From positions 11,748 to 75,747 of the forward strand of contig JAKJEF010000001.1 in NCBI GenBank assembly GCA_022705565.1: a stretch of 64,000 nucleotides of DNA. The letters run 5' to 3'. The DNA is from Patescibacteria group bacterium. Lineage in GTDB: Bacteria; Patescibacteriota; Minisyncoccia; UBA6257; Colwellbacteraceae. Position numbers and translations under genes: made by a program. Each line of letters begins with the position of its first letter. The first letter of the stretch is position 1. The notes beneath the pieces are model-generated. The model worked only from the letters and a program-made list of their open reading frames with translations, ran no database searches and was not told where the DNA came from. Of this stretch, positions 1 to 36,225 are shown piece after piece.

Positions 1-795
1 GGACTAAAAAAGCTTATTGCTACCAGTTTTTCCGGTTCGCCGATTACCGGTAAACAACTATCAATTCTTGAAATGGAGGGCCTTAAAAACGAGAAAAAGA
101 AGGAGCCGTTAAAAATCGAAATAACCGAAGTGTTGGATAGCGATAAAGACGGCGCGATAAACATTGATGATGTAAAGGAATTATTAAAACGCTGCAAGAA
201 GACCGTTACGCCCCTTAAAGGCGGTGGAGATTTTCGTAGTGAAGAATGTATAGGACTTCTTAAACAAGCCGATATTATTTGTACTAATCCGCCTTTTTCT
301 CTTTTTCGTGAATATGTCGCGCAACTTGTAGAATACAAGAAAAAGTTCCTTATTATCGGCAATGACAACGCTGTAAAATATAAAGAAATATTTCCTCTTA
401 TCGTGGAAAATAGAATTTGGCGCGGTTATACAAGAATCAAAGAGTTTAGAAGACCTAACGGTAGCTTACAAAAGTTTGGTAATGTCGGTTGGTTCACGAA
501 TCTTGATATGGCAAAACGTCACGAAAAAATCACTCTTTACAAAAAATATATAAGAAAAGAATATCCAGAATATGATAATTATGATGCGGTCGAGGTATCA
601 AAGATTTCTGAGATTCCAATGGATTATGATGGCGTGATGGGCGTTCCGATTACATTTATAGATAAATATAACCCAGATCAGTTTGAAATTATTGGTATAT
701 CAAATGGGAATAATCGTGATAAGTATGCAATAGGTAAAATGGTGACCGTAAATAATAAGTCAACCTACGCACGAATTTTAATTAAAAAGAGATAA
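1..795 (+). CDS. N6-adenine DNA methyltransferase, EcoRI-methylase-like; 5' end truncated by window edge
   Basis: Frame 1 is open from nt 1 with no stop before ORF 73..795, so the gene begins upstream of the window. It has motif IV IICTNPPF (NPPF) typical of amino-methyltransferases. Overall it looks like the M.EcoRI family. Confidence 0.6.
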   Translation, partial: GLKKLIATSFSGSPITGKQLSILEMEGLKNEKKKEPLKIEITEVLDSDKDGAINIDDVKELLKRCKKTVTPLKGGGDFRSEECIGLLKQADIICTNPPFSLFREYVAQLVEYKKKFLIIGNDNAVKYKEIFPLIVENRIWRGYTRIKEFRRPNGSLQKFGNVGWFTNLDMAKRHEKITLYKKYIRKEYPEYDNYDAVEVSKISEIPMDYDGVMGVPITFIDKYNPDQFEIIGISNGNNRDKYAIGKMVTVNNKSTYARILIKKR

Positions 796-804
796 TTTTT
801 TAAT

Positions 805-1143
805 ATGGAGTTTCTAAAAAACTTAAAATTAAATAATTGGTGGAGTCTATTAGTATACATTGGATTCTTTGGAATAATTGGCTCGCTTTTTATTAAAACC
901 GATTTTGTAGACTCTAAAAATATTTTTGGAGTTTCTCTGGGCTTTTTATTTATCGGATTATCAACGTTATCTGCGATAAAAACTGCTATTAAATTTAAAG
1001 AAGCGAACGCATATACTGGCGGACCAGCAATACTTTGTTGGCCGATAATAAAACACAATTTCTTTTCGGGATTAATAACTTTAATCGGAGCGACATTAGC
1101 TGTTATTTTTGGAACAAGAACAATTGTTAGTTTATTTTGGTAA
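805..1143 (+). CDS. small integral membrane protein (3 predicted TM helices), unknown function
   Basis: 112-aa ORF, co-oriented with the upstream gene after a 9-nt gap. Hydrophobic segments WWSLLVYIGFFGIIGSLFI, IFGVSLGFLFIGLSTLSAI and GLITLIGATLAVIFG. The antisense ORF 765..1148 is judged spurious. Confidence 0.45.
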   Translation: MEFLKNLKLNNWWSLLVYIGFFGIIGSLFIKTDFVDSKNIFGVSLGFLFIGLSTLSAIKTAIKFKEANAYTGGPAILCWPIIKHNFFSGLITLIGATLAVIFGTRTIVSLFW

Positions 1144-1149
1144 AACAAT

Positions 1150-2241
1150 ATGGAAATTAAATTACATCAAATTCCTATACGCGAGGTAATAGCCGGTTAT
1201 AAGGATAGTCAAGAAGAAGGCGTGACAGCCTATAACGATAAATTAGATATCCGGCCGAAATACCAGCGTGAGTTTGTATATAAAGAAAAGCAACGCAATG
1301 CGGTGATAGAAACAGTCAAACAAGACTTTCCACTGAACGTGATGTATTGGATGATCCGTGAAGACGGCGGCTATGAAGTTCTGGACGGCCAGCAGCGTAC
1401 TATTAGTATCGGCCAATATGTTAACGGTGACTTTTCACTAAACGAAAGGTATTTCCATAACTTAACAAAAGAAGAGCAAGATCAGATTCTGGATTACAAG
1501 TTAATGATTTATTTCTGCGAGGGTACGGATAAAGAGAGGCTGGACTGGTTTAAAATCATTAATACCGTCGGTGAACAATTGACTGAGCAGGAAATCAGGA
1601 ATGCGGTTTATACCGGACCGTGGCTCTCGGACGCTAAATTAAAGTTCTCCAAATCAAATTGTGTGGCGTATTTACTTGCAAACGATGGCGGAAAACTACT
1701 TGAGGGTTCGCCGATTCGACAGGAATATTTAGAAACCGCACTTTCTTGGATTAATAACGGAAAAATCGAAGATTATATGGCTCGTCATCAGCATGATAAA
1801 AATGCCAACGAATTGTGGGAGTATTTCCAAAACGTGATTGAATGGACGCGAAAAACTTTTCCGAATTACCGTCGCGAAATGAGCGGAGTTAATTGGGGTG
1901 ATTTATACAACGAATTTAAGGATAAGAAATTTGACACCAAAAAATTAGAAAAAGAAATAGCCGAGCTTATGGAAGATGAAGATGTTACTAAAAAGTCCGG
2001 TGTTTATCCGTATATTTTAACGAGGAAAGAAAAATATCTTTCAATTCGCACTTTTACCGATAAACAAAAAAGGGAAGCATATGAAAGACAAAATGGTATC
2101 TGTCCGATATGCAGTAAACATTTCGGAATCGAAGAAATGGAAGCCGATCATATCACGCCTTGGAGTAAAGGTGGAAAAACAATCTCAGAGAACTGCCGAA
2201 TGCTCTGCCAGAAAGACAATAGAGAAAAGAGTAATATATAG
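1150..2241 (+). CDS. DUF262 (ParB/Srx-like, GmrSD N-domain) + C-terminal HNH endonuclease
   Basis: N-terminal half carries the DGQQR motif and surrounding pattern of DUF262. C-terminus has CPICSKHF...ADHITPWSKGG...ENCRMLCQKDN, a canonical HNH (His-Me finger) with flanking Cys pairs. Only a 6-nt gap from the upstream TM gene. Confidence 0.75.
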   Translation: MEIKLHQIPIREVIAGYKDSQEEGVTAYNDKLDIRPKYQREFVYKEKQRNAVIETVKQDFPLNVMYWMIREDGGYEVLDGQQRTISIGQYVNGDFSLNERYFHNLTKEEQDQILDYKLMIYFCEGTDKERLDWFKIINTVGEQLTEQEIRNAVYTGPWLSDAKLKFSKSNCVAYLLANDGGKLLEGSPIRQEYLETALSWINNGKIEDYMARHQHDKNANELWEYFQNVIEWTRKTFPNYRREMSGVNWGDLYNEFKDKKFDTKKLEKEIAELMEDEDVTKKSGVYPYILTRKEKYLSIRTFTDKQKREAYERQNGICPICSKHFGIEEMEADHITPWSKGGKTISENCRMLCQKDNREKSNI

Positions 2242-2329
2242 TTTTTAAATTATCCAGTCTAAAATCATCTATCTAGACTGTTGAAGGGCTATTCGGGGTC
2301 GGTTTTGAAATCTGGCTGGCTCGTCTCGG

Positions 2330-2692
2330 TTAGGATTTATGTTTATTATGATCAGATAGTGGCTCGTGTTCTTCGTGTATTATTTCTCCTGTCTGATTAT
2401 CTTTAACTACTTGGTCGTATTTGTTGTTTTCTCGGTCGATTGTTTGTTCTATACTAACGCCTTTAGATAGCTTTTTATCTCCACTCGACTTATATCCAGA
2501 GAATATCTCTTTAACAAATCTTTTAAATCCGGGTCGTTTTTGTTTAATACCTAATGATGTCTGAGTTTTAATAATTGCACGAATTTCTAATTTAATAAAA
2601 TTCGGTGTTTCTTGCTGACAGTTGTCACAAAACTTAGTTTTTTTTACCGATTTACAATTTGCACAGAGCAGTTTTTTATTAAACTCTTCCAT
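2330..2692 (-). CDS. hypothetical zinc-ribbon protein
   Basis: 120-aa ORF with CANCKSVKKTKFCDNCQ (C-x2-C...C-x2-C). The remainder is K/E-rich. Lies in the low-GC block. Confidence 0.4.
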   Translation of the reverse strand: MEEFNKKLLCANCKSVKKTKFCDNCQQETPNFIKLEIRAIIKTQTSLGIKQKRPGFKRFVKEIFSGYKSSGDKKLSKGVSIEQTIDRENNKYDQVVKDNQTGEIIHEEHEPLSDHNKHKS

Positions 2693-2699
2693 TGTATTT

Positions 2700-3269
2700 T
2701 TAAAAGAAAAACTCTTTTCCGATTTGCCATAAATAACGATCTAAATCTTTAGCGTTGAATTCGGTAAGTCCATAGAACTCCTTAAATTTGTTTAATATTT
2801 CGACAAATTTTTCATATTCTTTAATGTCTTTTCTTCTAAATTCATAAAAATCATCTCGCCTGCGGAAGTGCCAAAGCACTTTTTCTATAAAAGAATCATA
2901 GATCGGATAGCGTTCCGGGTAGTGAAAACTACAATACTTTGACGCAAAGGAATAAAATTTCTTATCTCCTCTTGGAGTTTTAACCTTCGCAATCTTATCA
3001 ATAATCCTATAATCACCACGTCTTAGATCTTCGTCGATGTTAAGCTTTAAAATATGTCTTGCAACCATGAACGGATAATAGAGGTTTGTGCTGTAAGCTT
3101 GATTCAAAAAATCAACTTTTATAAGAATATGTTCTATTTTTGTATTCTTGGGATAGGTCTTTTCAAAGAGGAGTCTCAGCGCTTTATCTTGAATAACAAA
3201 GTATTCTGAACGATCCCATTTCGCAAGATAATTCTTTACTATTTGAGATGTGGGCGTGGGTATAGGCAC
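2700..3269 (-). CDS. hypothetical protein (start uncertain)
   Basis: The ORF-track start at 3362 would overlap tRNA-Gln (3328..3401), so I chose an in-frame GTG at 3269, just downstream of a TATAAT-like box. AT-rich. I recognise no domain. Confidence 0.4.
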   Translation of the reverse strand: MPIPTPTSQIVKNYLAKWDRSEYFVIQDKALRLLFEKTYPKNTKIEHILIKVDFLNQAYSTNLYYPFMVARHILKLNIDEDLRRGDYRIIDKIAKVKTPRGDKKFYSFASKYCSFHYPERYPIYDSFIEKVLWHFRRRDDFYEFRRKDIKEYEKFVEILNKFKEFYGLTEFNAKDLDRYLWQIGKEFFF

Positions 3270-3327
3270 AGCTCGATTATAGCATTTTAAGACAACCCGC
3301 CTCGGTCGCGAGAAACTGCGCTCAAAG

Positions 3328-3401
3328 TGGCTGCCGGACCTGGATTCGAACCAAGATACCATGCTCCAGAGGCATGTGTCCTACCATTAGACGATCCGGC
3401 A
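3328..3401 (-). tRNA. tRNA-Gln (anticodon CUG)
   Basis: Reverse complement folds as a cloverleaf. Acceptor stem UGCCGGA/UCCGGCA with U1-A72, G73 and an encoded CCA. D-loop AATGGTA. Anticodon stem CATGC/GCATG with loop CUCUGGA (CUG). T-arm CTTGG-TTCGAAT-CCAGG. Confidence 0.8.
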
Positions 3402-3638
3402 ATACGGATAGATTATAGGCGGAAAATCGATAAAAATAAAGAGGCTTGCCTTTACATGAAGACTGCTTTATAAGTAGATTATTAGGTCCTTTTTGGAGGG
3501 GATACGAAGTGAGAGAAATCCGAACGACGGATATCATGAGGGGGGGCGCCGCAAGATCCCATTACCGTACGTCTTGACGACAAAGACGTAATCGAGCTCG
3601 AATGCCATCACCGTTACAATAACGCGGGCCCAAGCCGG

Positions 3639-3875
3639 GTGATCATCGCAAGCAAAATCGAGATCAAAAACTCCGACGGGTCCTGGAGCCCTTACCCGAG
3701 CGTTACCTGGTTGGACGGAGTAGAAAGCGATGACCAGCTTCAGACAAGAGCGGTTATCCTGTCGCCTTCTGGAAAGGGTTTCGATGTTGTGGAGGGTCTG
3801 CAAGGCGTTCCGGACGGAACTTTGATGTCGGCCGCCGAAAAGGCGGGAGTTCACACCGAATTCATCGACGGATGA
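3639..3875 (+). CDS. small hypothetical protein (78 aa) in a GC-rich islet; could instead be noncoding
   Basis: GTG-initiated ORF with no obvious SD, followed by a strong intrinsic terminator. Local GC is clearly higher than the flanks. The overlapping minus-strand ORF 3534..3920 reads through the terminator and is less plausible. Confidence 0.25.
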   Translation: MIIASKIEIKNSDGSWSPYPSVTWLDGVESDDQLQTRAVILSPSGKGFDVVEGLQGVPDGTLMSAAEKAGVHTEFIDG

Positions 3876-3887
3876 TAAGGTGTAGTC

Positions 3888-3916
3888 AAGCCTGCTCTTC
3901 GGAGTAGGCTTTTTTG
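3888..3916 (+). terminator. rho-independent terminator (UUCG tetraloop hairpin + U tract)
   Basis: AAGCCTGCTC-TTCG-GAGTAGGCTT followed by TTTTT. Confidence 0.55.
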
Positions 3917-3981
3917 ACATTTGGCTTGAAATATGGTCTTATTATAATAAGATCATTAAGAATTGGAGGGAAAGTAGTAAT

Positions 3982-4566
3982 ATGGCTGACGAAGTTTATA
4001 GGCTTTCCGGTTTCTTTATCCCATTCCGGTATCTGCGGAAAGCTCTACTGTGCTGGCTCGATATAAGAGCCAGTTTCAGCGATGTGGCTCGCAAAGAACA
4101 TTGGCTAGACTGGCTGAAGCGTAAGCTTCACCAGTGGTTCATGGTTCAGAAAGTCTTGGAAATGCTAGATGCGGAAGGGAAGTGTGATCCCTTCGCGGTC
4201 AGTGCCGACTTCGACCTCGGGATCACTTTGGAGGAATGCGATAATGTAGTGGTTTTTATCGCTCCCCATTGTTGCGAAAGAATCATCCTGGAGGTTGCTA
4301 GTAAGCTGGACCTCATCTTGACGGTTGACTCTTTCTCCAAAACTTTGGAGAAGGGGACTTCTTTGATGCAGTTATACGAGAACGCCGACTGCGTTCTCGG
4401 CACCGTCGTTGATAGATCTCTGGGCACTTGTACTTGCCAAAGGCTCGCCGGTTTCGATGGAGAGCCGTGGATATTCAGGATCGAAGGTGATCGAGTCTAT
4501 CTTTCCGGTTCTCCGATCGCTAAGACGGCGTTGCAGAACATTTGTCTTGGTCTTTTCTCTTTGTAA
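3982..4566 (+). CDS. hypothetical protein (194 aa)
   Basis: Good SD (GGAGGG 8 nt upstream of ATG) and a terminator downstream. I recognise no family. Confidence 0.6.
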   Translation: MADEVYRLSGFFIPFRYLRKALLCWLDIRASFSDVARKEHWLDWLKRKLHQWFMVQKVLEMLDAEGKCDPFAVSADFDLGITLEECDNVVVFIAPHCCERIILEVASKLDLILTVDSFSKTLEKGTSLMQLYENADCVLGTVVDRSLGTCTCQRLAGFDGEPWIFRIEGDRVYLSGSPIAKTALQNICLGLFSL

Positions 4567-4574
4567 CATAAATT

Positions 4575-4609
4575 GAGGCTTCGCTTTTGGCGGAGCCTCT
4601 TCTGTTTTA
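4575..4609 (+). terminator. hairpin terminator between convergent genes
   Basis: GAGGCTTCGC-TTTTGG-CGGAGCCTC followed by TTCTGTTTT. A-rich on the other side, so it may act in both directions. Confidence 0.5.
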
Positions 4610-4644
4610 TAACCCTACTTTTTTTCCACTCGATCGCGGTAGTT

Positions 4645-5502
4645 TCAGAAGATATCCGTCGCTTTGGGTTTTTCTCCTTCGATCTGGATGATTTCGAGTT
4701 TCAATTTGCCGGTTTCATTGATTTTCGATTTCAAAAGTTTGACGCGTTTTCCGTTCAATATCGTCCAAGCTCCGGGTTCCGGATAAAAAGCCCGGATTTT
4801 ATTATGAATCTTTTTCGCCAACTCCGTATTTCCGGATTTGGCCGAAATTAAATCCTTTTCTTCGATAAAAGCCGATTCTGTTTTAAACTTTTCCGTGAAA
4901 GTCGCTTTGGTTTCGTCTTGGATTTCGGGGGTGATTTTTCCGTCAATAATGTCCGGCAATATTTCGACAAGCATTTTCGAAGAAAGCTCGGCCAGCTTTT
5001 CGGTTAAGGTTTCGCTGTTGTCGTCCGGATCGATCGGAATGGTTTTTTGCCGGAGAACCGGACCGTGATCCATCAAAGCGTCGATCAGGAAAAGCGATAC
5101 CCCGGTTCGGGTTTTGCCCTCTAGAATCGCGCTTTGAATGGGAGAGGCGCCACGAAGCTCCGGAAGTAAGGAGGGGTGAACGCCGACAACGCCCAAGCGG
5201 GGAATATCGATCAATTCTTGGGGCAGGATTTTGGCGTAAGCCGCAACAAGGTAAAAATCCGCCGGAATGGATTTAAGTGTTTCCAAGAACTCTGGTGTGA
5301 TCTTTTCTGGCTGGAGAATTTTAATGTTTTTTCCGGAATCGAGGACGATTTGCTTGGCCGGCGGGGGAGTGATCACGCGCTTCCGGCCAATCGGCTTGTC
5401 TAGACTCGCCACCACCGCTTTGGGAACAAAGCCGGCTTTGACGAGGTTTTTTAGGATAATGGCCGCGAATTCCGGCGTACCGAAGAAAACGAAATTATTC
5501 AT
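4645..5502 (-). CDS. fmt: methionyl-tRNA formyltransferase
   Basis: N-terminus MNNFVFFGTPEFAAIIL (the G-T-P-E-F-A signature) and formyltransferase core HPSLLP. I set the start at the internal ATG (5502) because the ORF-track N-terminal extension would overlap the upstream gene. Confidence 0.9.
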   Translation of the reverse strand: MNNFVFFGTPEFAAIILKNLVKAGFVPKAVVASLDKPIGRKRVITPPPAKQIVLDSGKNIKILQPEKITPEFLETLKSIPADFYLVAAYAKILPQELIDIPRLGVVGVHPSLLPELRGASPIQSAILEGKTRTGVSLFLIDALMDHGPVLRQKTIPIDPDDNSETLTEKLAELSSKMLVEILPDIIDGKITPEIQDETKATFTEKFKTESAFIEEKDLISAKSGNTELAKKIHNKIRAFYPEPGAWTILNGKRVKLLKSKINETGKLKLEIIQIEGEKPKATDIF

Positions 5503-5524
5503 TAAGAAAGAATCGGAAAAATCG

Positions 5525-7732
5525 TCATTCGGATTTCTTGAAGATATTGACGATACTTCCCATAAATTTATCGAGTTTTTCCAAATAGCTTCCTTCCGGC
5601 GGCCCTTCTTCGCGTATGCCGGTACCGAAGACTCTAACAATAGTTTCTTTAATGTCGGAATCGAGGAAACAGGAAGGATCGGGATTCGGAGCATCGTCTC
5701 TATTCCTGCATATCAGGGAATAAGTAGTGGTTCTTTGGGGAGCCACTCTTTCCGAGCTTCGAGAAGATAGGGGATTGTTTCCGGTTCTAGAAGAAGCATC
5801 ACCGGAGACAATGCCCATATTGCAGGAAATAGCGGTAGCAGAGCCTAGATATGGAGCCGAAGAATCCCAGTTAAGGGTAGAATACTTCCTGATCATTATA
5901 TCTTCGGAAGAATAGAGAATTTCCGTAGGAAGGGCGGTAAAGGTGACTTCCGGTTTTCCGACAACTCGGATTTGGGTTTTTCTCGCGCGGGAAGCGGAAC
6001 GGTCGTAGCAGTCGCGATCTTGTCCGATGACATCTCTTTTGCAGTTTTGTCCGTTCGGATCGCAATCGTAAGGTTCTCCGTAAATATCGGTATAAGTGCA
6101 GCATTCGTAATCGAGTTCGCATTGCATTCCGTATTCGGTGGTTCTTCCGGGATTGACGATGTCTTCTCCTCTGGAAGAAGTCTTCGCGGTCCAGTTTCCA
6201 CAAAGAGAATGGCAGGTGATTTCTTCGTTTTCTTTTCTTTCTCCCGAACCGCAGCTTGTGCTCGAAGAAGCTCTCCAAGTGACGGTCGCCTGGTTATCCG
6301 TCGCGGTAACGCATTGGTTCTCGTTGTCTTCGACCGTCAAAGTCAGTCCGGAACCGGTATCGGGCGGAAGAGTGCAGGTTGAGGACCCGGGACGACAGGA
6401 AGGTAAACAAGGACCCAAATCAGCATAACAAGTTCCGTATTTGGCCTTACATTGTTCTTCCGATTCGAATCTCGTGCTCAAGCAACTGTAAATCGGATCG
6501 CAGCGATAGAACTGCGTCAGGCTGCCTTCACATTCTTCTCTCGTTGAATAACATTTCTCGAAAGTTTCTTCGCATTCGTCTTTGTTTACAAAGGAGCCGG
6601 CGGGAACGCAAGAGCCAATATCCGGATTGAAGCGCCAGAACTCGTTTCCGAAAAACTTTCCCGAAGAACAATCCTCGTATTTTTTATCTTTCGGTCCGAA
6701 ACACTCGAATCCAGTTCCGTTTGCGCACTCCAGAGAGCTTGTGTATTTTCCTTTCTGGGGAACAAGGGTTTTATCTTCACAGGTATAGATATCTCTACAA
6801 AGATAAGAACATTCTTCTTTGGTTAAGCCGGCCCACAGGGTTTTATTGTTCACATAAATGCTCGCGAGATTGGGGTCGATACCAAAGTCGCTAAGAGTGC
6901 TGTATTTGCAGTTTTGCGACACATCACAGAAGAAAGGAATAGGATCGGGCGGAGGAGTCGGTTTACAGATACTCGCGCATTCTTCCGGATTAATAACAGC
7001 TCCTTTTTTCCATTCGCTGTGACTTCCGGCCGGGCAGACTCCTTCGGGAGGCGGGTAATTATCATTGGTTTCTCCGTGATAAGGAACCGAAGAGACAGGT
7101 TCCGTTGTGTGGTTGTCACAGCAGCATTTGTAGAAATTACCTGAACCTCCGGTGCAGGATCCGGCCCAAAGACCTTGGTTATCTGCTAAACATTGGTTGG
7201 AAGAACCTTGATCGGTGCACTTGTCGGCAGTGGAGTAAAGACGAGAGGTAATGCGGTAAAGATAAGATCGAATAAATCCCCATGGAGACCTATCAACACA
7301 TTCTTCAATTTGATATTTACTCCACGGAGAAAGCTTATTAGTTGTAGCTAAAGATAAACCCTGTAAAGTTTTTGCCGCTTGACCGCAAGAAATTCCCGGA
7401 CAGCCGTTAGTACTATTGACGCTATACGAAGTAGAACAAGTATTGTATGGATGGCAACCTTCTTGTCCTCCGGAATCTTGCCATAATTTCCATTGTCTTT
7501 GATACCATATTTCTTCTTCCAATGAATCCAATACGTTGCTATCCGATGGAATATATGTTTCCGGAACCTCGTCATAAGAAACACACTCGTCGCCTCGGCA
7601 CAGTCTCCCGTTTATGCATTGAAAATAACTATCTGGAGGGAAGTCTCCTTCCAAACATTGTTCTTGGGCGAAAACCAAATTAAAAGAGAAGGCACCAATA
7701 AGGAAAATTGTTAAAAAGACGAGCTTTTTCAT
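5525..7732 (-). CDS. large secreted cysteine-rich protein (735 aa, signal peptide, about 50 Cys, two Ig-like modules); family not recognised
   Basis: Signal peptide MKKLVFLTIFLIGAFSFNLVFA-QEQC. Cysteines throughout (KCCC, YECC etc). Modules QATVTWRASSSTSCGSG...RTTEYGMQC and STLNWDSS...AISC...RTTTYSLICRN. Paralog at 45009..47258. Confidence 0.85.
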   Translation of the reverse strand: MKKLVFLTIFLIGAFSFNLVFAQEQCLEGDFPPDSYFQCINGRLCRGDECVSYDEVPETYIPSDSNVLDSLEEEIWYQRQWKLWQDSGGQEGCHPYNTCSTSYSVNSTNGCPGISCGQAAKTLQGLSLATTNKLSPWSKYQIEECVDRSPWGFIRSYLYRITSRLYSTADKCTDQGSSNQCLADNQGLWAGSCTGGSGNFYKCCCDNHTTEPVSSVPYHGETNDNYPPPEGVCPAGSHSEWKKGAVINPEECASICKPTPPPDPIPFFCDVSQNCKYSTLSDFGIDPNLASIYVNNKTLWAGLTKEECSYLCRDIYTCEDKTLVPQKGKYTSSLECANGTGFECFGPKDKKYEDCSSGKFFGNEFWRFNPDIGSCVPAGSFVNKDECEETFEKCYSTREECEGSLTQFYRCDPIYSCLSTRFESEEQCKAKYGTCYADLGPCLPSCRPGSSTCTLPPDTGSGLTLTVEDNENQCVTATDNQATVTWRASSSTSCGSGERKENEEITCHSLCGNWTAKTSSRGEDIVNPGRTTEYGMQCELDYECCTYTDIYGEPYDCDPNGQNCKRDVIGQDRDCYDRSASRARKTQIRVVGKPEVTFTALPTEILYSSEDIMIRKYSTLNWDSSAPYLGSATAISCNMGIVSGDASSRTGNNPLSSRSSERVAPQRTTTYSLICRNRDDAPNPDPSCFLDSDIKETIVRVFGTGIREEGPPEGSYLEKLDKFMGSIVNIFKKSE
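7400..7732. repeat. dispersed repeat: 5' coding region of the Cys-rich gene, paralogous to about 46930..47258
   Basis: By-eye alignment of 7561..7660 with 47081..47180 gives roughly 75% nucleotide identity. The encoded N-termini are nearly identical. Confidence 0.55.
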
Positions 7733-7739
7733 TGAAATA

Positions 7740-7745
7740 AGTATA
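7740..7745 (-). promoter_or_regulatory. putative -10 box (TATACT) 7 nt upstream of the Cys-rich gene ATG; leaderless-type start
   Basis: Minus-strand sequence TATACT-TATTTCA-ATG. The identical arrangement (TATAAT-TATTTCA-ATG) precedes the paralog at 47258. No SD is present. Confidence 0.35.
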
Positions 7746-7792
7746 GCATTTTTAAATAAAAAGACCCCCGCTTTTTAGAAAAAAAGCAAGGG

Positions 7793-8479
7793 TCAATAGC
7801 TTAGGGACTGAACAATAGAAATAACGATCGAGTCAAGGAGGTTGATAGCTTCCGGATATACCCCAACCAGAATGACAGCGTCAACTCCTTCTCCCCAGTC
7901 GTTGGTGAGGGGACGACTACCCAAAGTGCCGATTATCGTATTAGCCGGCACTTTAATACTACCAGGAAGTCTTGCGGCTTCATCCTCTGTCTCGATGATA
8001 CTAGCGTTAGCAATCTGTTCGGCTAACTCGCTAGTAAGTTGAACACCAAATAGTGCAAGCTCCCAACCGCTTCCGTAAACAACAAGGCATTCTTCCGAGT
8101 CTGGTTTGTTATCCTTTTCTTCGGGCAGAGCGTCCCAGATACCTTGACACAGAACGACATCAACATTCACCGATACCTCATTTTTCTCGAGCGATCCCTC
8201 CGGCGACTTATAGGTAATAGTGAACGCAAAAGCATTGAGGGGCTTTGCTACAGCCTCTCCTTTCTCGCTGAAGCTCACTAGCTTCAGTTTGGGTTCTGCG
8301 GGTTTCGGATCAACAGAATCAGGCTTCACCGGATCTTCGGGTTTAACCGGATCTTTCGCGGTCGGAGTAACACTAGAAGTTGGTGGAAAGCTCTGAAATA
8401 CCGACAAAACAGCAAAAAGAAAAAACACGATGATCAGAACCAATGCGACAATCCTCGTCCTATTCTTTCTTCCTTTCAC
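7793..8479 (-). CDS. N-terminally membrane-anchored protein (228 aa), partner of the Cys-rich gene
   Basis: GTG start preceded by GAGGAGG. Single TM segment IVALVLIIVFFLFAVLSVF, then a Pro/Lys/Asp-rich linker and a C-terminal domain. Positional analog of 47349..47912. Confidence 0.6.
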   Translation of the reverse strand: MKGRKNRTRIVALVLIIVFFLFAVLSVFQSFPPTSSVTPTAKDPVKPEDPVKPDSVDPKPAEPKLKLVSFSEKGEAVAKPLNAFAFTITYKSPEGSLEKNEVSVNVDVVLCQGIWDALPEEKDNKPDSEECLVVYGSGWELALFGVQLTSELAEQIANASIIETEDEAARLPGSIKVPANTIIGTLGSRPLTNDWGEGVDAVILVGVYPEAINLLDSIVISIVQSLSY

Positions 8480-8583
8480 TTCTCGCTAGCCTCCTCTCTT
8501 CAAGATTGTCTGCAGTTGTGAAATTAACTGCTTATGATTTTTTCATAGCATAAACAGGGAAGATTGTCAAAATATCCGGTTTT

Positions 8584-9042
8584 CTAATCTTTGTGATCGG
8601 CGATCAATGTGCCGTTCAGATGATCGGTTTCGTGCTGGAATATTCTTGCGAGTAATCCCCAGGCTTTGATTTTCAGTTTTTTGCCGTTTTTATCCTGTCC
8701 GACAAGCGTTACTTGGTAAGGTCGTTTGATGCTTTTTTCCATTTCGGGAACGCTCAAGCATCCTTCTTCGCATTCGTCCATTTGCTTCGAAACACTCGTA
8801 ATTTCCGGATTGAAAATAACGTAAAACTTGCCTTCGTTCTGGGCGACGAACATCCGCCAGTCCAAACCGATCTGATTCGCCGAAAGCCCGACGCCTTTGT
8901 TCTCCTGCATCAACTTCCGCATTTTTTTGGCAACTTCGGCAATCTTCTTTTTGTCGGCTTTCTTGAAATCGAAATCCGGCACCCGTCCGTGAAGGATCTT
9001 GGCTTCGGATTTTTTATCTTCTACGGTGACTATCTTCATCAT
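8584..9042 (-). CDS. def: peptide deformylase
   Basis: Motifs GVGLSANQIG, EGCLSVP and QHETDHLNG (the HExxH metal site). Confidence 0.9.
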   Translation of the reverse strand: MMKIVTVEDKKSEAKILHGRVPDFDFKKADKKKIAEVAKKMRKLMQENKGVGLSANQIGLDWRMFVAQNEGKFYVIFNPEITSVSKQMDECEEGCLSVPEMEKSIKRPYQVTLVGQDKNGKKLKIKAWGLLARIFQHETDHLNGTLIADHKD

Positions 9043-9331
9043 CTTTTTCTTTTTGCCAGATGGCCATGAAATAGGCCCCTTTGTTCTTGATGTTCTTTTT
9101 CTCGGCGATCGATTTGGCGAGGCTCAAAAGCCTGTCTTCGTTAAACTCCTTCGCCAATTTGATATATAAGGATTTGTGGGCTCTATCGTCAAGGAGCTCG
9201 GCCATTTCGAGGCCGACCAACTGGTGTCGGGTGTAAACCCGGGATTCTTTGGCCCTTTCCTTTATTTTCCGGAAATAATCCGCGAAATCCCGCTTTTTTT
9301 CCTTTTTCCGGCCGGTTTTCATCGATTCCAT
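9014..9331 (-). CDS. hypothetical protein (105 aa)
   Basis: The ORF overlaps the def start by 29 nt and diverges from thpR with only 15 nt between start codons. No recognised domain. The start may lie further in. Confidence 0.35.
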   Translation of the reverse strand: MESMKTGRKKEKKRDFADYFRKIKERAKESRVYTRHQLVGLEMAELLDDRAHKSLYIKLAKEFNEDRLLSLAKSIAEKKNIKNKGAYFMAIWQKEKDDEDSHRRR

Positions 9332-9333
9332 TA

Positions 9334-9339
9334 TATAAT
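9334..9339 (+). promoter_or_regulatory. putative -10 box (TATAAT) 7 nt upstream of the thpR ATG
   Basis: ccattaTATAATactctcgATG, with no SD. Confidence 0.35.
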
Positions 9340-9346
9340 ACTCTCG

Positions 9347-9910
9347 ATGGATAAAAGAGTCTTCGCGGGAATCAATCTTCCTTTGGAAACAAAAGCAAAA
9401 ATCGAAGCGGCTTTGTTCGAAGCCGAACCTTTATGGAAGGGGATTATAAGCCCGAGAATCCTGGATCGGGAAAACTGGCATATCACTATGGGGTTTTTCG
9501 GGAAGAAAAGCGAGGCGGAGATCGAGCTTATCAAAGAAGCGATCGAAGAAACCGCCTCGGCTTTTCCTTTGCCGGAAATAAAATTAAAAAGAATCGTCTT
9601 TGGTCCGACCAAGGCTCGTGAAGCGAGAATGATCTGGCTCGAAGTCGAATCTAAAGATCTCAAGAATGTCAAAGAATCTTTCGATCGAAATCTCGAAAAA
9701 CGCGGAGTGATTTTGGAAAACAAAAAGTTTTCTCCGCACATCACTTTGGCGAGATTCGAGCCGATAGATTTCGACCGTTTACCACCTCTTAAAAAAGAAG
9801 TCGATCTCGATTTCCGGGCAAAGTCTCTTGATCTTATGGAGTCCGTATTATCGAGCAAAGGATCGACTTATACCTTGATTTCGGAAATAGACTTTGGAGG
9901 GGTAAAATAG
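9347..9910 (+). CDS. thpR: RNA 2',3'-cyclic phosphodiesterase / 2'-5' RNA ligase family (LigT/ThpR)
   Basis: Two H-x-T-x motifs (HITMGFFG and HITLARF). Start set at the internal ATG 9347 (MDKRVFAGINLP); the ORF-track 5' extension is judged non-coding. Confidence 0.8.
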   Translation: MDKRVFAGINLPLETKAKIEAALFEAEPLWKGIISPRILDRENWHITMGFFGKKSEAEIELIKEAIEETASAFPLPEIKLKRIVFGPTKAREARMIWLEVESKDLKNVKESFDRNLEKRGVILENKKFSPHITLARFEPIDFDRLPPLKKEVDLDFRAKSLDLMESVLSSKGSTYTLISEIDFGGVK

Positions 9911-9920
9911 TAAAATCCCT

Positions 9921-11165
9921 ATGATGAACCAGCTGCCGAAAAAGAGAATCCTTATTGTCGTTGTTCTCGCCCTTTTGCTTGCGGTCTCGACCGCCGGCTC
10001 TTTTTATGTCGGCTACCGTAAAGGCCTCGAGGAGACGAAAATCATCGAAATCAAAGGCGTGGCCGACATCAATCCGAACGAGGAGGTTTCGGCCGATTTC
10101 GGGGTATTTTGGCAAGCCTGGGACAAGATAAAATCCAAATACGTCAAAGCCAAAGACATCAAGGACCAGGATCTGGTTTACGGAGCGATCAGCGGCATGC
10201 TCGAAAGTCTCGGCGATCCTTATACCGTTTTCATGAATCCGGAAGAAGCCCAGAAATTCACCGAGGACGTTAACGGCAATTTCGGCGGCATCGGAGCCGA
10301 ACTGGAAAACCAGGGAGATTACGTCGTGGTCGTGGCGCCGCTCAAAGGAACTCCGGCCGAACGGGCCGGAATAAAACCCGGCGACATCATTCTGAAAGCC
10401 GGAGACACGGAATTGACCGATGTCGATGTTTTGGAGGCGGTAAAAGTGATCCGGGGAGAGCCGGGAACAAAAATCATTCTTTCCGTCATGCGCGAAGGAT
10501 TCACCGCACCCAAGGATTTCGAGATCACGAGGGAAATCATCGAGGTTCCGACCCTCGAGTGGTCCTGGCTCGATGATAAGATCGTCCACATCGAACTTTA
10601 CGGATTCAATCAGAACGCACCCGTCGCTTTTTACCGAGCCATCCTCGAGACCGTGCCCCAGGACACCAAGGGAATCGTCCTCGATTTGAGGAACAATCCC
10701 GGCGGATACCTTGATGTCGCCGTAAACATCGCCGGCTGGTTCCTTAAGCCCGGCGAAACCGTCGTCTCCGAGAAATTCGCGAACGGCGATCTCGACGTGC
10801 TGCGGGCTTCGGGAAACGGAGCTCTCCAAAACATGCCGACGATCGTTCTCGTGAACAGCGGTTCGGCTTCGGCTTCGGAGATCCTGGCCGGCGCGCTCCG
10901 CGACAACCGCAACGTTAAAATCGTCGGCGAAAAGACTTTCGGCAAAGGATCGGTGCAGACGATCGAGGACCTGAAGGACGGGTCGGTCCTGAAAGTGACG
11001 ATCGCGAGCTGGGTGACGCCCAAAGGATTGATTTTGAACGGCAACGGCATCGAACCCGATTACGAAGTCAAAATCACCGACGAAGACGCGGAAAACGACC
11101 GCGACCCGCAGCTCGAAAAAGCGCTCGAAATCCTGGAATCGCAAATCACGGCGACAGGAAATTAA
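9921..11165 (+). CDS. carboxyl-terminal processing protease (S41 peptidase with PDZ domain)
   Basis: PDZ region GIKPGDIILKAGDTELTD. S41 core GIVLDLRNNPGGYL...NSGSASASEILAGAL...GEKTFGKGSVQ. N-terminal TM anchor. Confidence 0.85.
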   Translation: MMNQLPKKRILIVVVLALLLAVSTAGSFYVGYRKGLEETKIIEIKGVADINPNEEVSADFGVFWQAWDKIKSKYVKAKDIKDQDLVYGAISGMLESLGDPYTVFMNPEEAQKFTEDVNGNFGGIGAELENQGDYVVVVAPLKGTPAERAGIKPGDIILKAGDTELTDVDVLEAVKVIRGEPGTKIILSVMREGFTAPKDFEITREIIEVPTLEWSWLDDKIVHIELYGFNQNAPVAFYRAILETVPQDTKGIVLDLRNNPGGYLDVAVNIAGWFLKPGETVVSEKFANGDLDVLRASGNGALQNMPTIVLVNSGSASASEILAGALRDNRNVKIVGEKTFGKGSVQTIEDLKDGSVLKVTIASWVTPKGLILNGNGIEPDYEVKITDEDAENDRDPQLEKALEILESQITATGN

Positions 11166-11178
11166 TTTTCAAAAACAA

Positions 11179-11613
11179 ATGAAAGTCATTCTTCTCGAAG
11201 ACATCAAGAATGTCGGCCGCAGGCACGAAGTGAAGAACGTTTCTGACGGCTATGCCCGGAACATGCTTTTTCCGAGGAAAATGGCGGTTTTGGCCACGCC
11301 CGAGGAAATGAGAAAAATAGAAAAAGAAAAACAAACGGCCGAGACCGAGGAAAAGGAATCGATGGCTAAGCTGAAATCCGTCACCGAAGGCGAGCCGATC
11401 AAGTTCTACCTCAAAACCGGTGACAAAGGGGAAATCTACACCTCGATCAAATCAGAGGACATCGAACAAGAACTCCGGAGAAGGGGACTCGGAGAGGTCA
11501 AAGTAAAGCTTCCGAAACCGATAAAAAATCTCGGCCTTTTCGAGGTCGAGATCAATTTGCGGAAAGGGGTCGCCGGAAAAGTTAAGATTTCGGCAGAACC
11601 TTCACCCAAGTAG
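11179..11613 (+). CDS. rplI: 50S ribosomal protein L9
   Basis: [32 protein letters not shown] matches the L9 N-domain. Confidence 0.85.
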
Positions 11614-11863
11614 CGTATCTTATTTTGGAATTGAACCGCGTTTTCTTGCCCTTGGAATACTGGACCACGCCTTCGATTTTGGAATAGAGAGTATCGTCTC
11701 CGGCTCTCAAGACATTGTCTCCGGGAATATAGCGGGTTCCTCTTTGGCGAAGCAAAATCTGACCGGGTTTGACCGGTTCTCCGTGGTTCTTCTTTACTCC
11801 CAATCTTTTAGCCTCGGAATCCCGTCCTAACTTTGTGGATCCGAGGGCTTTTGTATGAGCCAT
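11582..11863 (-). CDS. rpmA: 50S ribosomal protein L27
   Basis: [24 protein letters not shown]...[13 protein letters not shown]. Convergent with rplI; their 3' ends overlap by 32 nt. Confidence 0.9.
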
Positions 11864-11880
11864 AACAAAATAATGATAAT

Positions 11881-12030
11881 ATGAAATTCATGGACCTGTC
11901 AACCGGAAAAACAAGGATTTTCCTCGCTGTCGTCGGGGTTTTGATCCTGAGTTTGGCTTTCGGGTTGGGGTATTTTTCGGGTCAGAGTTTTTGCCGGAAT
12001 CCGATCGTTATCGAAACATGCGCCGATTGA
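11881..12030 (+). CDS. possible small membrane protein (49 aa)
   Basis: Manually found [40 protein letters not shown]..., with its stop overlapping the next gene start. No SD. Weak. Confidence 0.2.
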
Positions 12031-12722
12031 TTTCCGTTTCCACGGGTTGTTTCTACAAACTCGGCGTTTCCAAAGAAGAAATCTTCGGACGCCTCAAGGC
12101 TTTGGACATCGACGGCGTCGAAGTACTTTTCAATAAGCCGCAGGACGTTTTCGATTTTGAAATATCCGAAGATAATTCGGATTTCCTTAGAAGCTTGTCT
12201 TTTGTCACGATCCATGCGCCGGACAACGACTTGGAAAACCCGGCGGCGATCGAGGTTTTAAACCGGTTGGATCATATTTATCGGCTGATCTACGCCAAAA
12301 ACATCGTTTTTCACGTACGCAAAGACGACGACTTGAGTATTTTCTTCAATTACGGCTTTAAAGCATCCATGGAAAATGACGATTGGAGAAAAGAGAAAGA
12401 GACGAATACCGTCCCCAGTATCGAGCGCCTGCTCCGCATTTATCCGCGCCTGGGATTTGTTCTTGATGTCGGACACGCCGATTCGGTCGATCCGGCCGAC
12501 GCCGAAAAATACGCCGATCGTTTTAAAGACAGGATCACGGAGATCCATCTATCCCGTGTCGATAAAGAAAAACGCGAACACGATTTTATGAATCGACACC
12601 GAGAATCGTTGAATAAAAAAGTATTCGAGGCGACGCGAGTGCCGATAATCATCGAAGGAGCGCTTCAGAACGAAAACGTGTCAGCGCTTCAAAAGGAAAT
12701 CGAACTGGCCCGGAAACTTTAG
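12018..12722 (+). CDS. xylose-isomerase-like TIM-barrel protein (sugar phosphate isomerase/epimerase or AP-endonuclease family 2-like)
   Basis: Motifs TIHAPDN, VFHVRKD, LDVGHAD, EIHLSRVD in the spacing of this TIM-barrel superfamily. Start set at the internal ATG ([12 protein letters not shown]). Confidence 0.55.
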   Translation: MRRLISVSTGCFYKLGVSKEEIFGRLKALDIDGVEVLFNKPQDVFDFEISEDNSDFLRSLSFVTIHAPDNDLENPAAIEVLNRLDHIYRLIYAKNIVFHVRKDDDLSIFFNYGFKASMENDDWRKEKETNTVPSIERLLRIYPRLGFVLDVGHADSVDPADAEKYADRFKDRITEIHLSRVDKEKREHDFMNRHRESLNKKVFEATRVPIIIEGALQNENVSALQKEIELARKL

Positions 12723-34604: not shown

Positions 34605-35402
34605 ATGGACAAAGCAAGCGGTTTCCTACTCGGTTTTATGCCGAGTTTTAACAGCGATCTTTTGGAACAAATAGAATTCGCGAAGCGACATTTTGATTTT
34701 TTGGAATTGACTTTACCTTATAATCTTCGGCCGTGGTCGCCCGAATATATCGAATCTGTCAGAAAATCTTTGGGAAAGTTTTCTCTTGTCGGGCATCTCC
34801 ATTGGGATATCGATTTGACGGCTTTGGATGGAGAAAAGAATGCGAAGGAAGGCCTTCAATTATTTAGAAAACTAGGAACATCCAAAGTAATTATTCATCC
34901 GTCTTTCCCTGAAAATGTTGGCATTGATGAAGCTCTCCGAAAAAATATGGAAGCCTTAAAAGCGCTCACCGATTTCTGCGATCCGTTAAACATCGATCTT
35001 CTGGCGGAGAATGGAGATCCAACCATTCCGGATATTGTCGAAAAACTCCGATATCTTACCGATCAGATTCCCAACTTAAATATAGCTTTGGATATCGGTC
35101 ATGCCGTAAATAATTGGAGAAAATTCGCCGAAGTTCTCCAAGATAAAACCAAACATCTTCATTTGCATTATAGCGACGGTGTGGACGATCACCTGCCTTT
35201 TCCCGACAACATCATTTTAAAAGAAATTGTGGATTTTTGGGGAAATAAAAATATGACGGCGACTTTGGAGATCTTTAGAAAAAAACACGGCGGGACTTTA
35301 GAGGAAATCGAGGGATCAAAAAGAGAAAAAATTTTATTAAAACAAATTGAAATGGCAAGAAAAAGGCGCTTCGACGTCCTAATATTAAACAAACACTTTT
35401 GA
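34605..35402 (+). CDS. xylose-isomerase-like TIM-barrel protein (endonuclease IV-like motifs), paralog of 12018..12722
   Basis: Motifs VIIHPSF, LLAENGD, ALDIGHA and HLHLHYSDG, similar to LLENTAG, CFDTCHA and HLHLNDS of Nfo. Start overlaps the dnaX stop. Confidence 0.55.
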   Translation: MDKASGFLLGFMPSFNSDLLEQIEFAKRHFDFLELTLPYNLRPWSPEYIESVRKSLGKFSLVGHLHWDIDLTALDGEKNAKEGLQLFRKLGTSKVIIHPSFPENVGIDEALRKNMEALKALTDFCDPLNIDLLAENGDPTIPDIVEKLRYLTDQIPNLNIALDIGHAVNNWRKFAEVLQDKTKHLHLHYSDGVDDHLPFPDNIILKEIVDFWGNKNMTATLEIFRKKHGGTLEEIEGSKREKILLKQIEMARKRRFDVLILNKHF

Positions 35403-36142: not shown

Positions 36143-36213
36143 TGCGGGGTGGTGCAATGGTAACACGCCTGCCTTTGAAGCAGGAACTCTAGGTTCGATT
36201 CCTAGCCCCGCAG
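36143..36213 (+). tRNA. tRNA-Gln (anticodon UUG)
   Basis: Acceptor stem UGCGGGG/CCCCGCA with U1-A72 and G73. D-loop AATGGTAA. Anticodon stem CCTGC/GCAGG with loop CUUUGAA (UUG). T-arm CTAGG-TTCGATT-CCTAG. CCA is not encoded. Confidence 0.75.
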
Positions 36214-36225
36214 CAAAACAGATCC

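Follow-up and report, generated by a model that had tools for sequence, protein, structure and literature searches.

A predicted two-gene restriction-modification module, with a probable cargo gene between its parts, in a tRNA-linked islet of a Colwellbacteria genome

The left end of a 64,000-nucleotide (nt) stretch from a Patescibacteria group bacterium of the Colwellbacteraceae (contig JAKJEF010000001.1 of assembly GCA_022705565.1, positions 11,748 to 75,747 of the forward strand; the window, whose positions are used below) carries the gene for an N6-adenine DNA methyltransferase (M) and, behind a gene for a small transmembrane (TM) protein, the gene for a DUF262-HNH nuclease (R). The explanation preferred here, to which we give odds of roughly three in four, is that M and R form a two-gene restriction-modification (R-M) core, that the TM gene is cargo lodged between them, and that all three lie in a low-GC, variable islet at a tRNA gene, where the module would already have stood before two sister species diverged. 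A preliminary description of this DNA had listed a truncated NPPF methyltransferase, a 112-amino-acid (aa) protein with three TM segments, a DUF262 plus HNH nuclease and two convergent open reading frames (ORFs), and had given gaps of 9 and 6 nt between the first three genes; all were found as placed, with those gaps. Its suggestion of a possible R-M system also holds up, both genes matching R-M profiles in PADLOC, where it had proposed looking. The three genes at issue are as follows.

1-795, + strand: EcoRI-family (gamma-class, NPPF) N6-adenine DNA methyltransferase, M; the 3' 264 codons of a 331-aa gene, frame open at the window start.
805-1143, + strand: 112-aa protein with three TM segments (hydrophobic segments 12-33, 39-58 and 84-111); cargo between M and R.
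1150-2241, + strand: predicted restriction endonuclease of 363 aa, R; N-terminal DUF262/ParB-like domain, C-terminal zinc-ribbon HNH.

The part of M that lies outside the window was read from JAKQSW010000001.1 (GCA_029569665.1, 179 kb), a contig on which the 363-aa nuclease sequence is identical; the locus taken from it, L001, is 99.98% identical to the window and has window base 1 at its base 8852. The full gene (L001 8651-9646, 331 aa) has its first 67 codons upstream of the window. Its product matches PF13651 (EcoRI_methylase) end to end at E 1.9e-130, with 435.6 bits against a cut-off of 26.4, and the fragment within the window alone matches profile positions 60-344 of 345 at E 1e-93. It contains the NPPF catalytic motif and matches PADLOC MTase_II at 9e-80, and a PDB search by sequence returned no solved structural relative. 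M.EcoRI, the founder of PF13651, is like it in the NPPF motif and in the family profile that it fits end to end; the methyltransferase here differs in having a conserved EF-hand-like loop and in its partner nuclease, which is unrelated to R.EcoRI. R.EcoRI is a PD-(D/E)XK enzyme. The loop (DxDxDGxIxxxD followed by a helix, residues 111-122, window 130-165) is present in most homologous methyltransferases, and Pfam EF-hand matches to it fall below threshold.

The nuclease joins a GmrSD_N/DUF262 domain (PF03235, 66 bits) to an HNH domain (PF01844, 46 bits), the C-terminus also matching PF14279 (HNH_5), and no DUF1524 match was found at E <= 0.1. Its best PADLOC model is REase_II (PDLC03418, 9.6e-143), with residues 1-362 aligned to profile positions 1-371 of 372. 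The motif DGQQR stands at residues 79-83, and the HNH part has C318, C321, D333-H334, N348, C349, C353 and N357; an alignment of 72 diverse homologues shows that the predicted catalytic positions are maintained, namely DGQQR, D333-H334, N348, N357 and four of the cysteines. Across the family the invariant or near-invariant positions are Q39, R40, DGQQR 79-83, N138, Q147, E148 and N151 in the N-terminal part and C318, C321, H334, N348 and C353 in the zinc ribbon. Assignment to Menshen (NsnABC) was considered and rejected: PADLOC NsnA covers the DUF262 part alone (residues 29-159, 3.7e-27), and the neighbouring genes match neither NsnB nor NsnC.

A further argument for a functional pair comes from the company these two genes keep. 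In 77 of 80 related loci (L008-L087) M lies directly upstream of R in the same orientation, usually 5 or 14 nt away, and the other 3 loci end at contig edges. The 80 loci are spread over Patescibacteria, Omnitrophota, Elusimicrobiota, Planctomycetota, Gammaproteobacteria, Bacteroidota, Chloroflexota and other phyla. The pair is also found on plasmids of cultured Macrococcoides, Aeromonas, Variovorax, Gordonia, Enterococcus and other bacteria, where it is annotated as "EcoRI family methyltransferase" plus "DUF262 domain-containing protein", and a few phage and viral contigs carry it as well. At E <= 1e-10 the nuclease has more than 8,000 matches among database proteins, the best 120 of them all 77-84% identical, and a filter-free search gave 507 clusters (50% identity) at E <= 1e-30. 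The family is already covered by REBASE-derived profiles and RefSeq names. The literature searched yielded nothing on a DUF262-HNH enzyme that has a methyltransferase of the EcoRI family as its partner, and no characterised prototype from which a REBASE name could be given.

KpnI, Hpy99I and PacI are examples of Type II endonucleases with a beta-beta-alpha-Me (HNH) fold. The present pair is like such Type II systems in having separate M and HNH R genes in one operon, M first, zinc-binding cysteines in the HNH domain, and a full-length match to a REBASE-derived Type II REase profile. Three marks of a Type II R-M system are found here: adjacent M and R genes, an N6-adenine motif together with a family match, and a recognised REase family with its conserved residues. 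As to a fourth, cleavage at a defined sequence that cognate methylation blocks and that needs no nucleoside triphosphate, the DUF262 domain suggests that the enzyme may depend on a nucleotide. Together, these observations support the prediction that M and the DUF262-HNH protein are an R-M pair, and that the functional unit would be a two-gene module.

The conservation of the two genes has a feature of its own. In R-M systems the methyltransferase is usually the more conserved partner, and in this clade the pattern is reversed. Among 51 loci with full M and R, which were picked by R similarity and so bias the comparison, median pairwise identity is 81.7% for R and 66.0% for M, R exceeds M in 97.7% of pairs, and the two identities are weakly correlated (r = 0.26), which suggests frequent recombination. 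The plasmid examples agree (R 61%, M 42-50%). Between genomes of unrelated phyla R is 73-99% identical. Could the pair be mainly a selfish addiction cassette, spread horizontally and kept by post-segregational killing, with defence incidental and the low GC a trace of the cassette's origin? The high identity of R across phyla, the weak correlation between M and R, the plasmid and viral copies and an apparent depletion of many restriction-site palindromes inside the cassettes (from counts that are not independent) all fit such a history. It is, however, compatible with defence, since both roles are known for Type II R-M systems, and the module appears to have persisted stably at a single chromosomal location in the two sister species. 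We regard it as very unlikely, and of the readings weighed here it is the one we would back least.

What kind of DNA would this nuclease cut? An AlphaFold model built on the 72-sequence diverse alignment reached a predicted local distance difference test score (pLDDT) of 92; an earlier model, made from 38 near-identical homologues, reached 47 and was set aside. In structure comparison the model scored 9.2 with BrxU (7P9K), 8.2 with the EcoKMcrA HNH domain, about 8 with Cas9 HNH domains and 7.8 with SspE. Foldseek also returned ParB/Noc CTPase domains and sulfiredoxin, and a PDB sequence search matched the HNH part only, plus a marginal match to BrxU. The nuclease has the family architecture of GmrSD, BrxU and SspE, which are Type IV or phosphorothioate-sensing nucleases of DUF262 plus DUF1524, with an N-terminal DUF262 domain bearing DGQQR. 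It differs from them in its nuclease domain, a classical zinc-ribbon HNH (PF01844) where they have DUF1524, in its length of 363 aa against 560-590 aa (some 200 residues shorter), and in its obligate methyltransferase partner, present in 77 of 77 assessable loci. This constant pairing suggests cutting that would be blocked by modification and not dependent on it.

The setting of the module is a short island of atypical composition. Positions 1-3327 have 35.5% GC, whereas the remaining 3.3-kb intervals of the window average 48.4% and go no lower than 42.8%, and GC content at third codon positions (GC3) is 0.24-0.40 in the islet genes against 0.58 +/- 0.07 in 50 long ORFs elsewhere in the window (z -2.5 to -4.7). 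The AT-richness that the preliminary description had judged by eye is thus real, and holds up under the checks that it had proposed, of windowed GC and, through GC3, of codon usage. Its island of 3.3 kb was too short: the low-GC stretch runs over 5.1 kb (L001 about 7070-12178), of which 1.8 kb lie upstream of the left edge of the window, so that positions 1-3327 are the right-hand two thirds of the islet in this Candidatus Colwellbacteria genome. A core secreted-protein gene flanks the islet on one side and the 3' end of tRNA-Gln(CUG) on the other. The upstream 1.8 kb encode a 61-aa TM protein and proteins of 147 and 118 aa, for which Pfam, NCBIfam, PHROGs and PADLOC gave nothing usable. Two further features belong here.

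L001 8538-8571: strong hairpin in the upstream 1.8 kb, followed by a promoter-like site at L001 8597-8625.
3328-3401, - strand: tRNA-Gln(CUG), found by ARAGORN and by Rfam RF00005 (58.4 bits; the sole match in an Rfam scan of window 1-8000); its 3' end faces the islet and forms the right-hand boundary.

The site can be compared with that of a metagenomic sister species. Its fmt protein is 83% identical, its flanking DNA is 81-84.5% identical, and the same flanking genes stand on both sides. On the tRNA side the DNA homology ends at the discriminator base, which bears out the earlier claim that the islet stops exactly at the tRNA 3' end. Between these flanks the sister carries a low-GC islet of 10.9 kb (L115 4713-15638), against 5.1 kb here. 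It contains proteins of the CYTH and Hypoth_Ymh families together with a TM protein; M (65% identity), TM (64%) and R (81%); five small ORFs; a large serine recombinase that is intact (domains Resolvase, Recombinase and Zn_ribbon_recom, active-site motif YARKST); and, before the tRNA, a PycTM-like protein (PADLOC 4.8e-6) and a 153-aa protein. The sister islet is the richer defence islet at the same tRNA. The site is a variable tRNA-linked hotspot. M, TM and R are common to both species at this one site and have diverged like core proteins, which points to their presence before the split, with cargo turnover around them; the acquisition therefore probably predates the separation of the two sister species and is not recent. 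One sister species was recovered, and no empty site was found.

In its atypical composition, its boundary at a tRNA 3' end and its different content in a sister species, the islet is like other tRNA-associated genomic islands, and the sister version carries a site-specific recombinase as they do. It is unlike them in its small size of 5.1 kb, in having neither integrase nor duplicated tRNA end in this genome, and in that the recombinase of its relative is of the serine and not the usual tyrosine type. The proposal of a horizontally acquired defence island accordingly survives as regards composition, tRNA boundary and variability of the site; it has to be amended in that the acquisition is probably not recent and that the two convergent genes have no defence-family match.

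Several observations weigh against the preferred explanation or one of its parts. No integrase or recombinase is found among the 8 ORFs of the 5.1-kb islet or in the 10 kb upstream, and within the 21-kb locus the tRNA 3' end has no second copy at <=3 mismatches and no relevant direct repeat; the preliminary description had pointed upstream of the window for both. The missing tRNA-end repeat is weak evidence, because serine recombinases would leave no long repeat, and with integrase and repeat both absent from the islet any account of its integration stays conditional. Promoter-like and terminator-like sites are no commoner than in shuffled sequence. Among 4-mer palindromes GTAC falls furthest below expectation in the window (34 observed, 72 expected, observed/expected ratio 0.47), but in 827 kb pooled from 80 hosts its ratio is 0.78 and its depletion is not specific. 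The structurally characterised DUF262 nucleases (BrxU, GmrSD and SspE) are all modification-dependent or modification-sensing, and to our knowledge none is modification-blocked, so the fold resemblance argues the opposite way from the pairing with a methyltransferase. Finally, 3 of the 4 known TM genes adjoin an R-M pair of this kind, one of them with an R only 36% identical, which also fits a functional link between the TM protein and the pair.

The resemblance of folds raises the reading that the nuclease is a modification-dependent, GmrSD-like enzyme of Type IV, the methyltransferase being independent, an orphan, or acting on the status of incoming DNA. Such an enzyme would not be expected to have M adjacent and co-oriented in every assessable locus, usually within 5-14 nt. 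Its best PADLOC model is moreover the REBASE-derived Type II REase, matched over its full length, and its nuclease domain is PF01844 and not the DUF1524 that defines GmrSD, in a protein far shorter than the roughly 580 aa of BrxU. For these reasons we regard a Type IV enzyme as very unlikely.

Could the TM protein instead be a working partner of M and R, in a system of three components? It might tether the nuclease at the membrane site of phage entry, or be a PrrC-like abortive-infection effector released on inhibition of the R-M system. The four members of its family, this protein and three homologues of 64-66% identity among 5.8 billion proteins, offer some encouragement. One homologue stands between M and R in the sister species, and another (L118, 66% identity) between a divergent M (46%) and R (36%), next to AbiEi/AbiEii; three of the four thus follow an EcoRI-family M directly and precede a DUF262 nuclease, and in L118 the TM protein has kept an identity well above those of M and R. 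Pairwise ratios of nonsynonymous to synonymous substitution rates (dN/dS) of 0.13-0.28 indicate a real gene under purifying selection, and its spacing is tight. Against this, tblastn found the TM protein in none of the 80 related loci, most of which have M and R 5-14 nt apart; other loci hold many unrelated genes in the same place; the third homologue (L119) follows a HATPase_c_4 protein and not a methyltransferase, and precedes PDDEXK_3 and T5orf172 genes; and Pfam, NCBIfam, PHROGs and PADLOC give no family match. A three-component system is in our judgement unlikely. On sequence comparison, the TM gene appears not to be a conserved component of the system but lineage-specific cargo, and the three-gene operon proposed earlier gives way to a conserved two-gene module with such a passenger.

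The place that this passenger occupies may be of wider use. About 16 of 77 loci have 400-1,900 nt of unrelated genes between M and R (for example L021 4057-6001, L012 4103-6001, L041 2239-3572 and L033 1769-3447). Their contents include T5orf172/MUG113 (five loci), DUF2130, RhuM, Bro-N with a partner, an AAA_21/AAA_15 ATPase and several TM proteins. Loci with the same cargo are not closer to each other in M or R sequence, and sublineages of single origin were not demonstrable. That the M-R junction behaves as a recurrent cargo slot is a modestly interesting lead. PrrC lies within the Type Ic EcoprrI locus, and "restriction-linked ORFs" lie within Type I loci. The likeness to such accessory genes is that an unrelated gene is lodged within an R-M operon and co-expressed with it; here too, in other members of the family, the slot holds defence-like or mobile genes (AAA_21 ATPase, RhuM, T5orf172, DUF2130). 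The difference is that the host here is a two-gene, Type II-like module and that any functional interplay is putative. EcoPrrI is mentioned in PMC12707154.

The edge of this slot next to R is itself conserved.

1135-1152, + strand: junction of TM stop, 6 nt and R start; carries the family-wide R leader (AAAAAATAAT-ATGAAAATTGA) in degenerate form.

The leader consists of about 10 nt before the R start and the first R codons; it is A-rich and conserved across phyla in about 75 loci. At this junction the window has TGGTAAAACAATATGGAAATT (leader region 1140-1160). As the leader is retained whether M or a cargo gene precedes R, it suggests a conserved, coupled translation start that works without a Shine-Dalgarno sequence. 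With its stop codon 6 nt before the R start, the TM gene probably now mediates the translational coupling of the nuclease.

Under the preferred explanation of a two-gene R-M core with cargo, the EcoRI-family methyltransferase would mark host DNA at adenine N6, and the co-transcribed DUF262(ParB-like)-HNH protein would cut DNA that lacks the mark. The HNH domain would do the cutting, and the DUF262 domain would probably bind nucleotide and DNA, gating cleavage. The TM gene would be one of many unrelated cargo genes to have entered the M-R junction. The module would have been at this site in the common ancestor of both sister species, the genes around it having since turned over, and the large serine recombinase beside the tRNA of the sister may have built or moved the islet. 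A bolder model joins two of these threads: the M-R junction as a dedicated slot for accessory defence or mobile genes, coupled to R through its leader so that the R-M pair serves as a carrier platform, and the nuclease as a ParB-like, nucleotide-gated HNH enzyme blocked by methylation, a mode undescribed for DUF262 nucleases. We consider this combination possible but doubtful.

Palindrome avoidance was also tried as a route to the recognition site, and rejected: the depletion of GTAC is not reproduced across hosts, and shared ancestry confounds an analysis of cassettes alone. The window shows no avoidance of GAATTC (41 copies). TGTACA and TACGTA are absent from it, and its shortage of GTAC may be the mark of this R-M system or of another in the host. 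In the M-R cassettes of L008-L087, ACGT has a ratio of 0.43 against 0.70 in the flanks, CGGCCG occurs 1 time against 18.5 expected and GGATCC 3 times against 18.6; the cassettes are homologous and these counts are not independent.

Between the nuclease and the tRNA lie two genes that converge on the module.

2255-2334: convergent intergenic region after R, with a weak inverted repeat (2255-2261 / 2274-2280) and a terminator-like hairpin (2311-2334).
2330-2692, - strand: 120-aa protein with an N-terminal CxxC...CxxC zinc ribbon; GC3 0.24.
2700-3275, - strand: HI_0787_N family protein of about 191 aa (PF27257, precomputed); annotated ORF 2700-3362, 220 aa.

The terminator-like hairpin (L001 11162-11185) is a candidate only, since such sites do not exceed shuffled expectation. 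Neither gene has a defence-family match. The zinc-ribbon protein has no match in Pfam, NCBIfam, PHROGs or PADLOC, and its gene is absent from the sister islet and from the 80 M-R loci. The HI_0787_N gene as annotated starts at an ATG at 3362, which carries it 35 nt over the tRNA. Its 356 homologues are mostly 191-202 aa long and their N-termini align at about residue 30 of the window protein, so the start is probably the GTG at 3275, which gives 191 aa and no overlap with the tRNA, and the annotated ATG is probably wrong. One homologue stands beside Thoeris (ThsB-ThsA-ThsB) in a Paceibacterota genome (L122 1066-2970), and another inside a conjugative element with a type IV secretion system in a Bacilli genome (L125 1-8582); these surroundings suggest that the family travels with mobile and defence DNA.

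Some other features of the window were noted. On the 5' side of the tRNA a small gene (3509-3875, + strand) is intact (120 aa) in the sister species and here is frameshifted at a run of seven G (3540-3546), which an error of assembly, decay to a pseudogene or phase variation in this tract could each explain; public gene calls place a 128-aa ORF on the opposite strand there (3534-3920). A cysteine-rich protein of 735 aa with a signal peptide (5525-7732, - strand) has no Pfam family recorded in the public gene table. The long ORF with the lowest GC3 outside the islet (34605-35402, + strand, GC 0.39) encodes an AP_endonuc_2/xylose-isomerase-like TIM barrel and sits 0.7 kb from a second tRNA-Gln (UUG, 36143-36214).

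A bacterium of the small-genome Colwellbacteria (Patescibacteria) thus has, beside a tRNA gene at a hotspot of variation, a compact islet with a predicted R-M defence module. The TM gene within it should not be annotated as a component of the R-M system, and the M-R junction, which repeatedly holds foreign genes, could be searched at little cost for new accessory defence genes. The pairing of a DUF262-HNH protein with a methyltransferase of the EcoRI family belongs to the more widely distributed R-M modules of uncultivated phyla and appears uncharacterised in the literature searched. If the proposed mode of cutting is true, a DUF262 relative blocked by methylation would help, by comparison, to understand the way in which DNA is read by the ParB-like domain.

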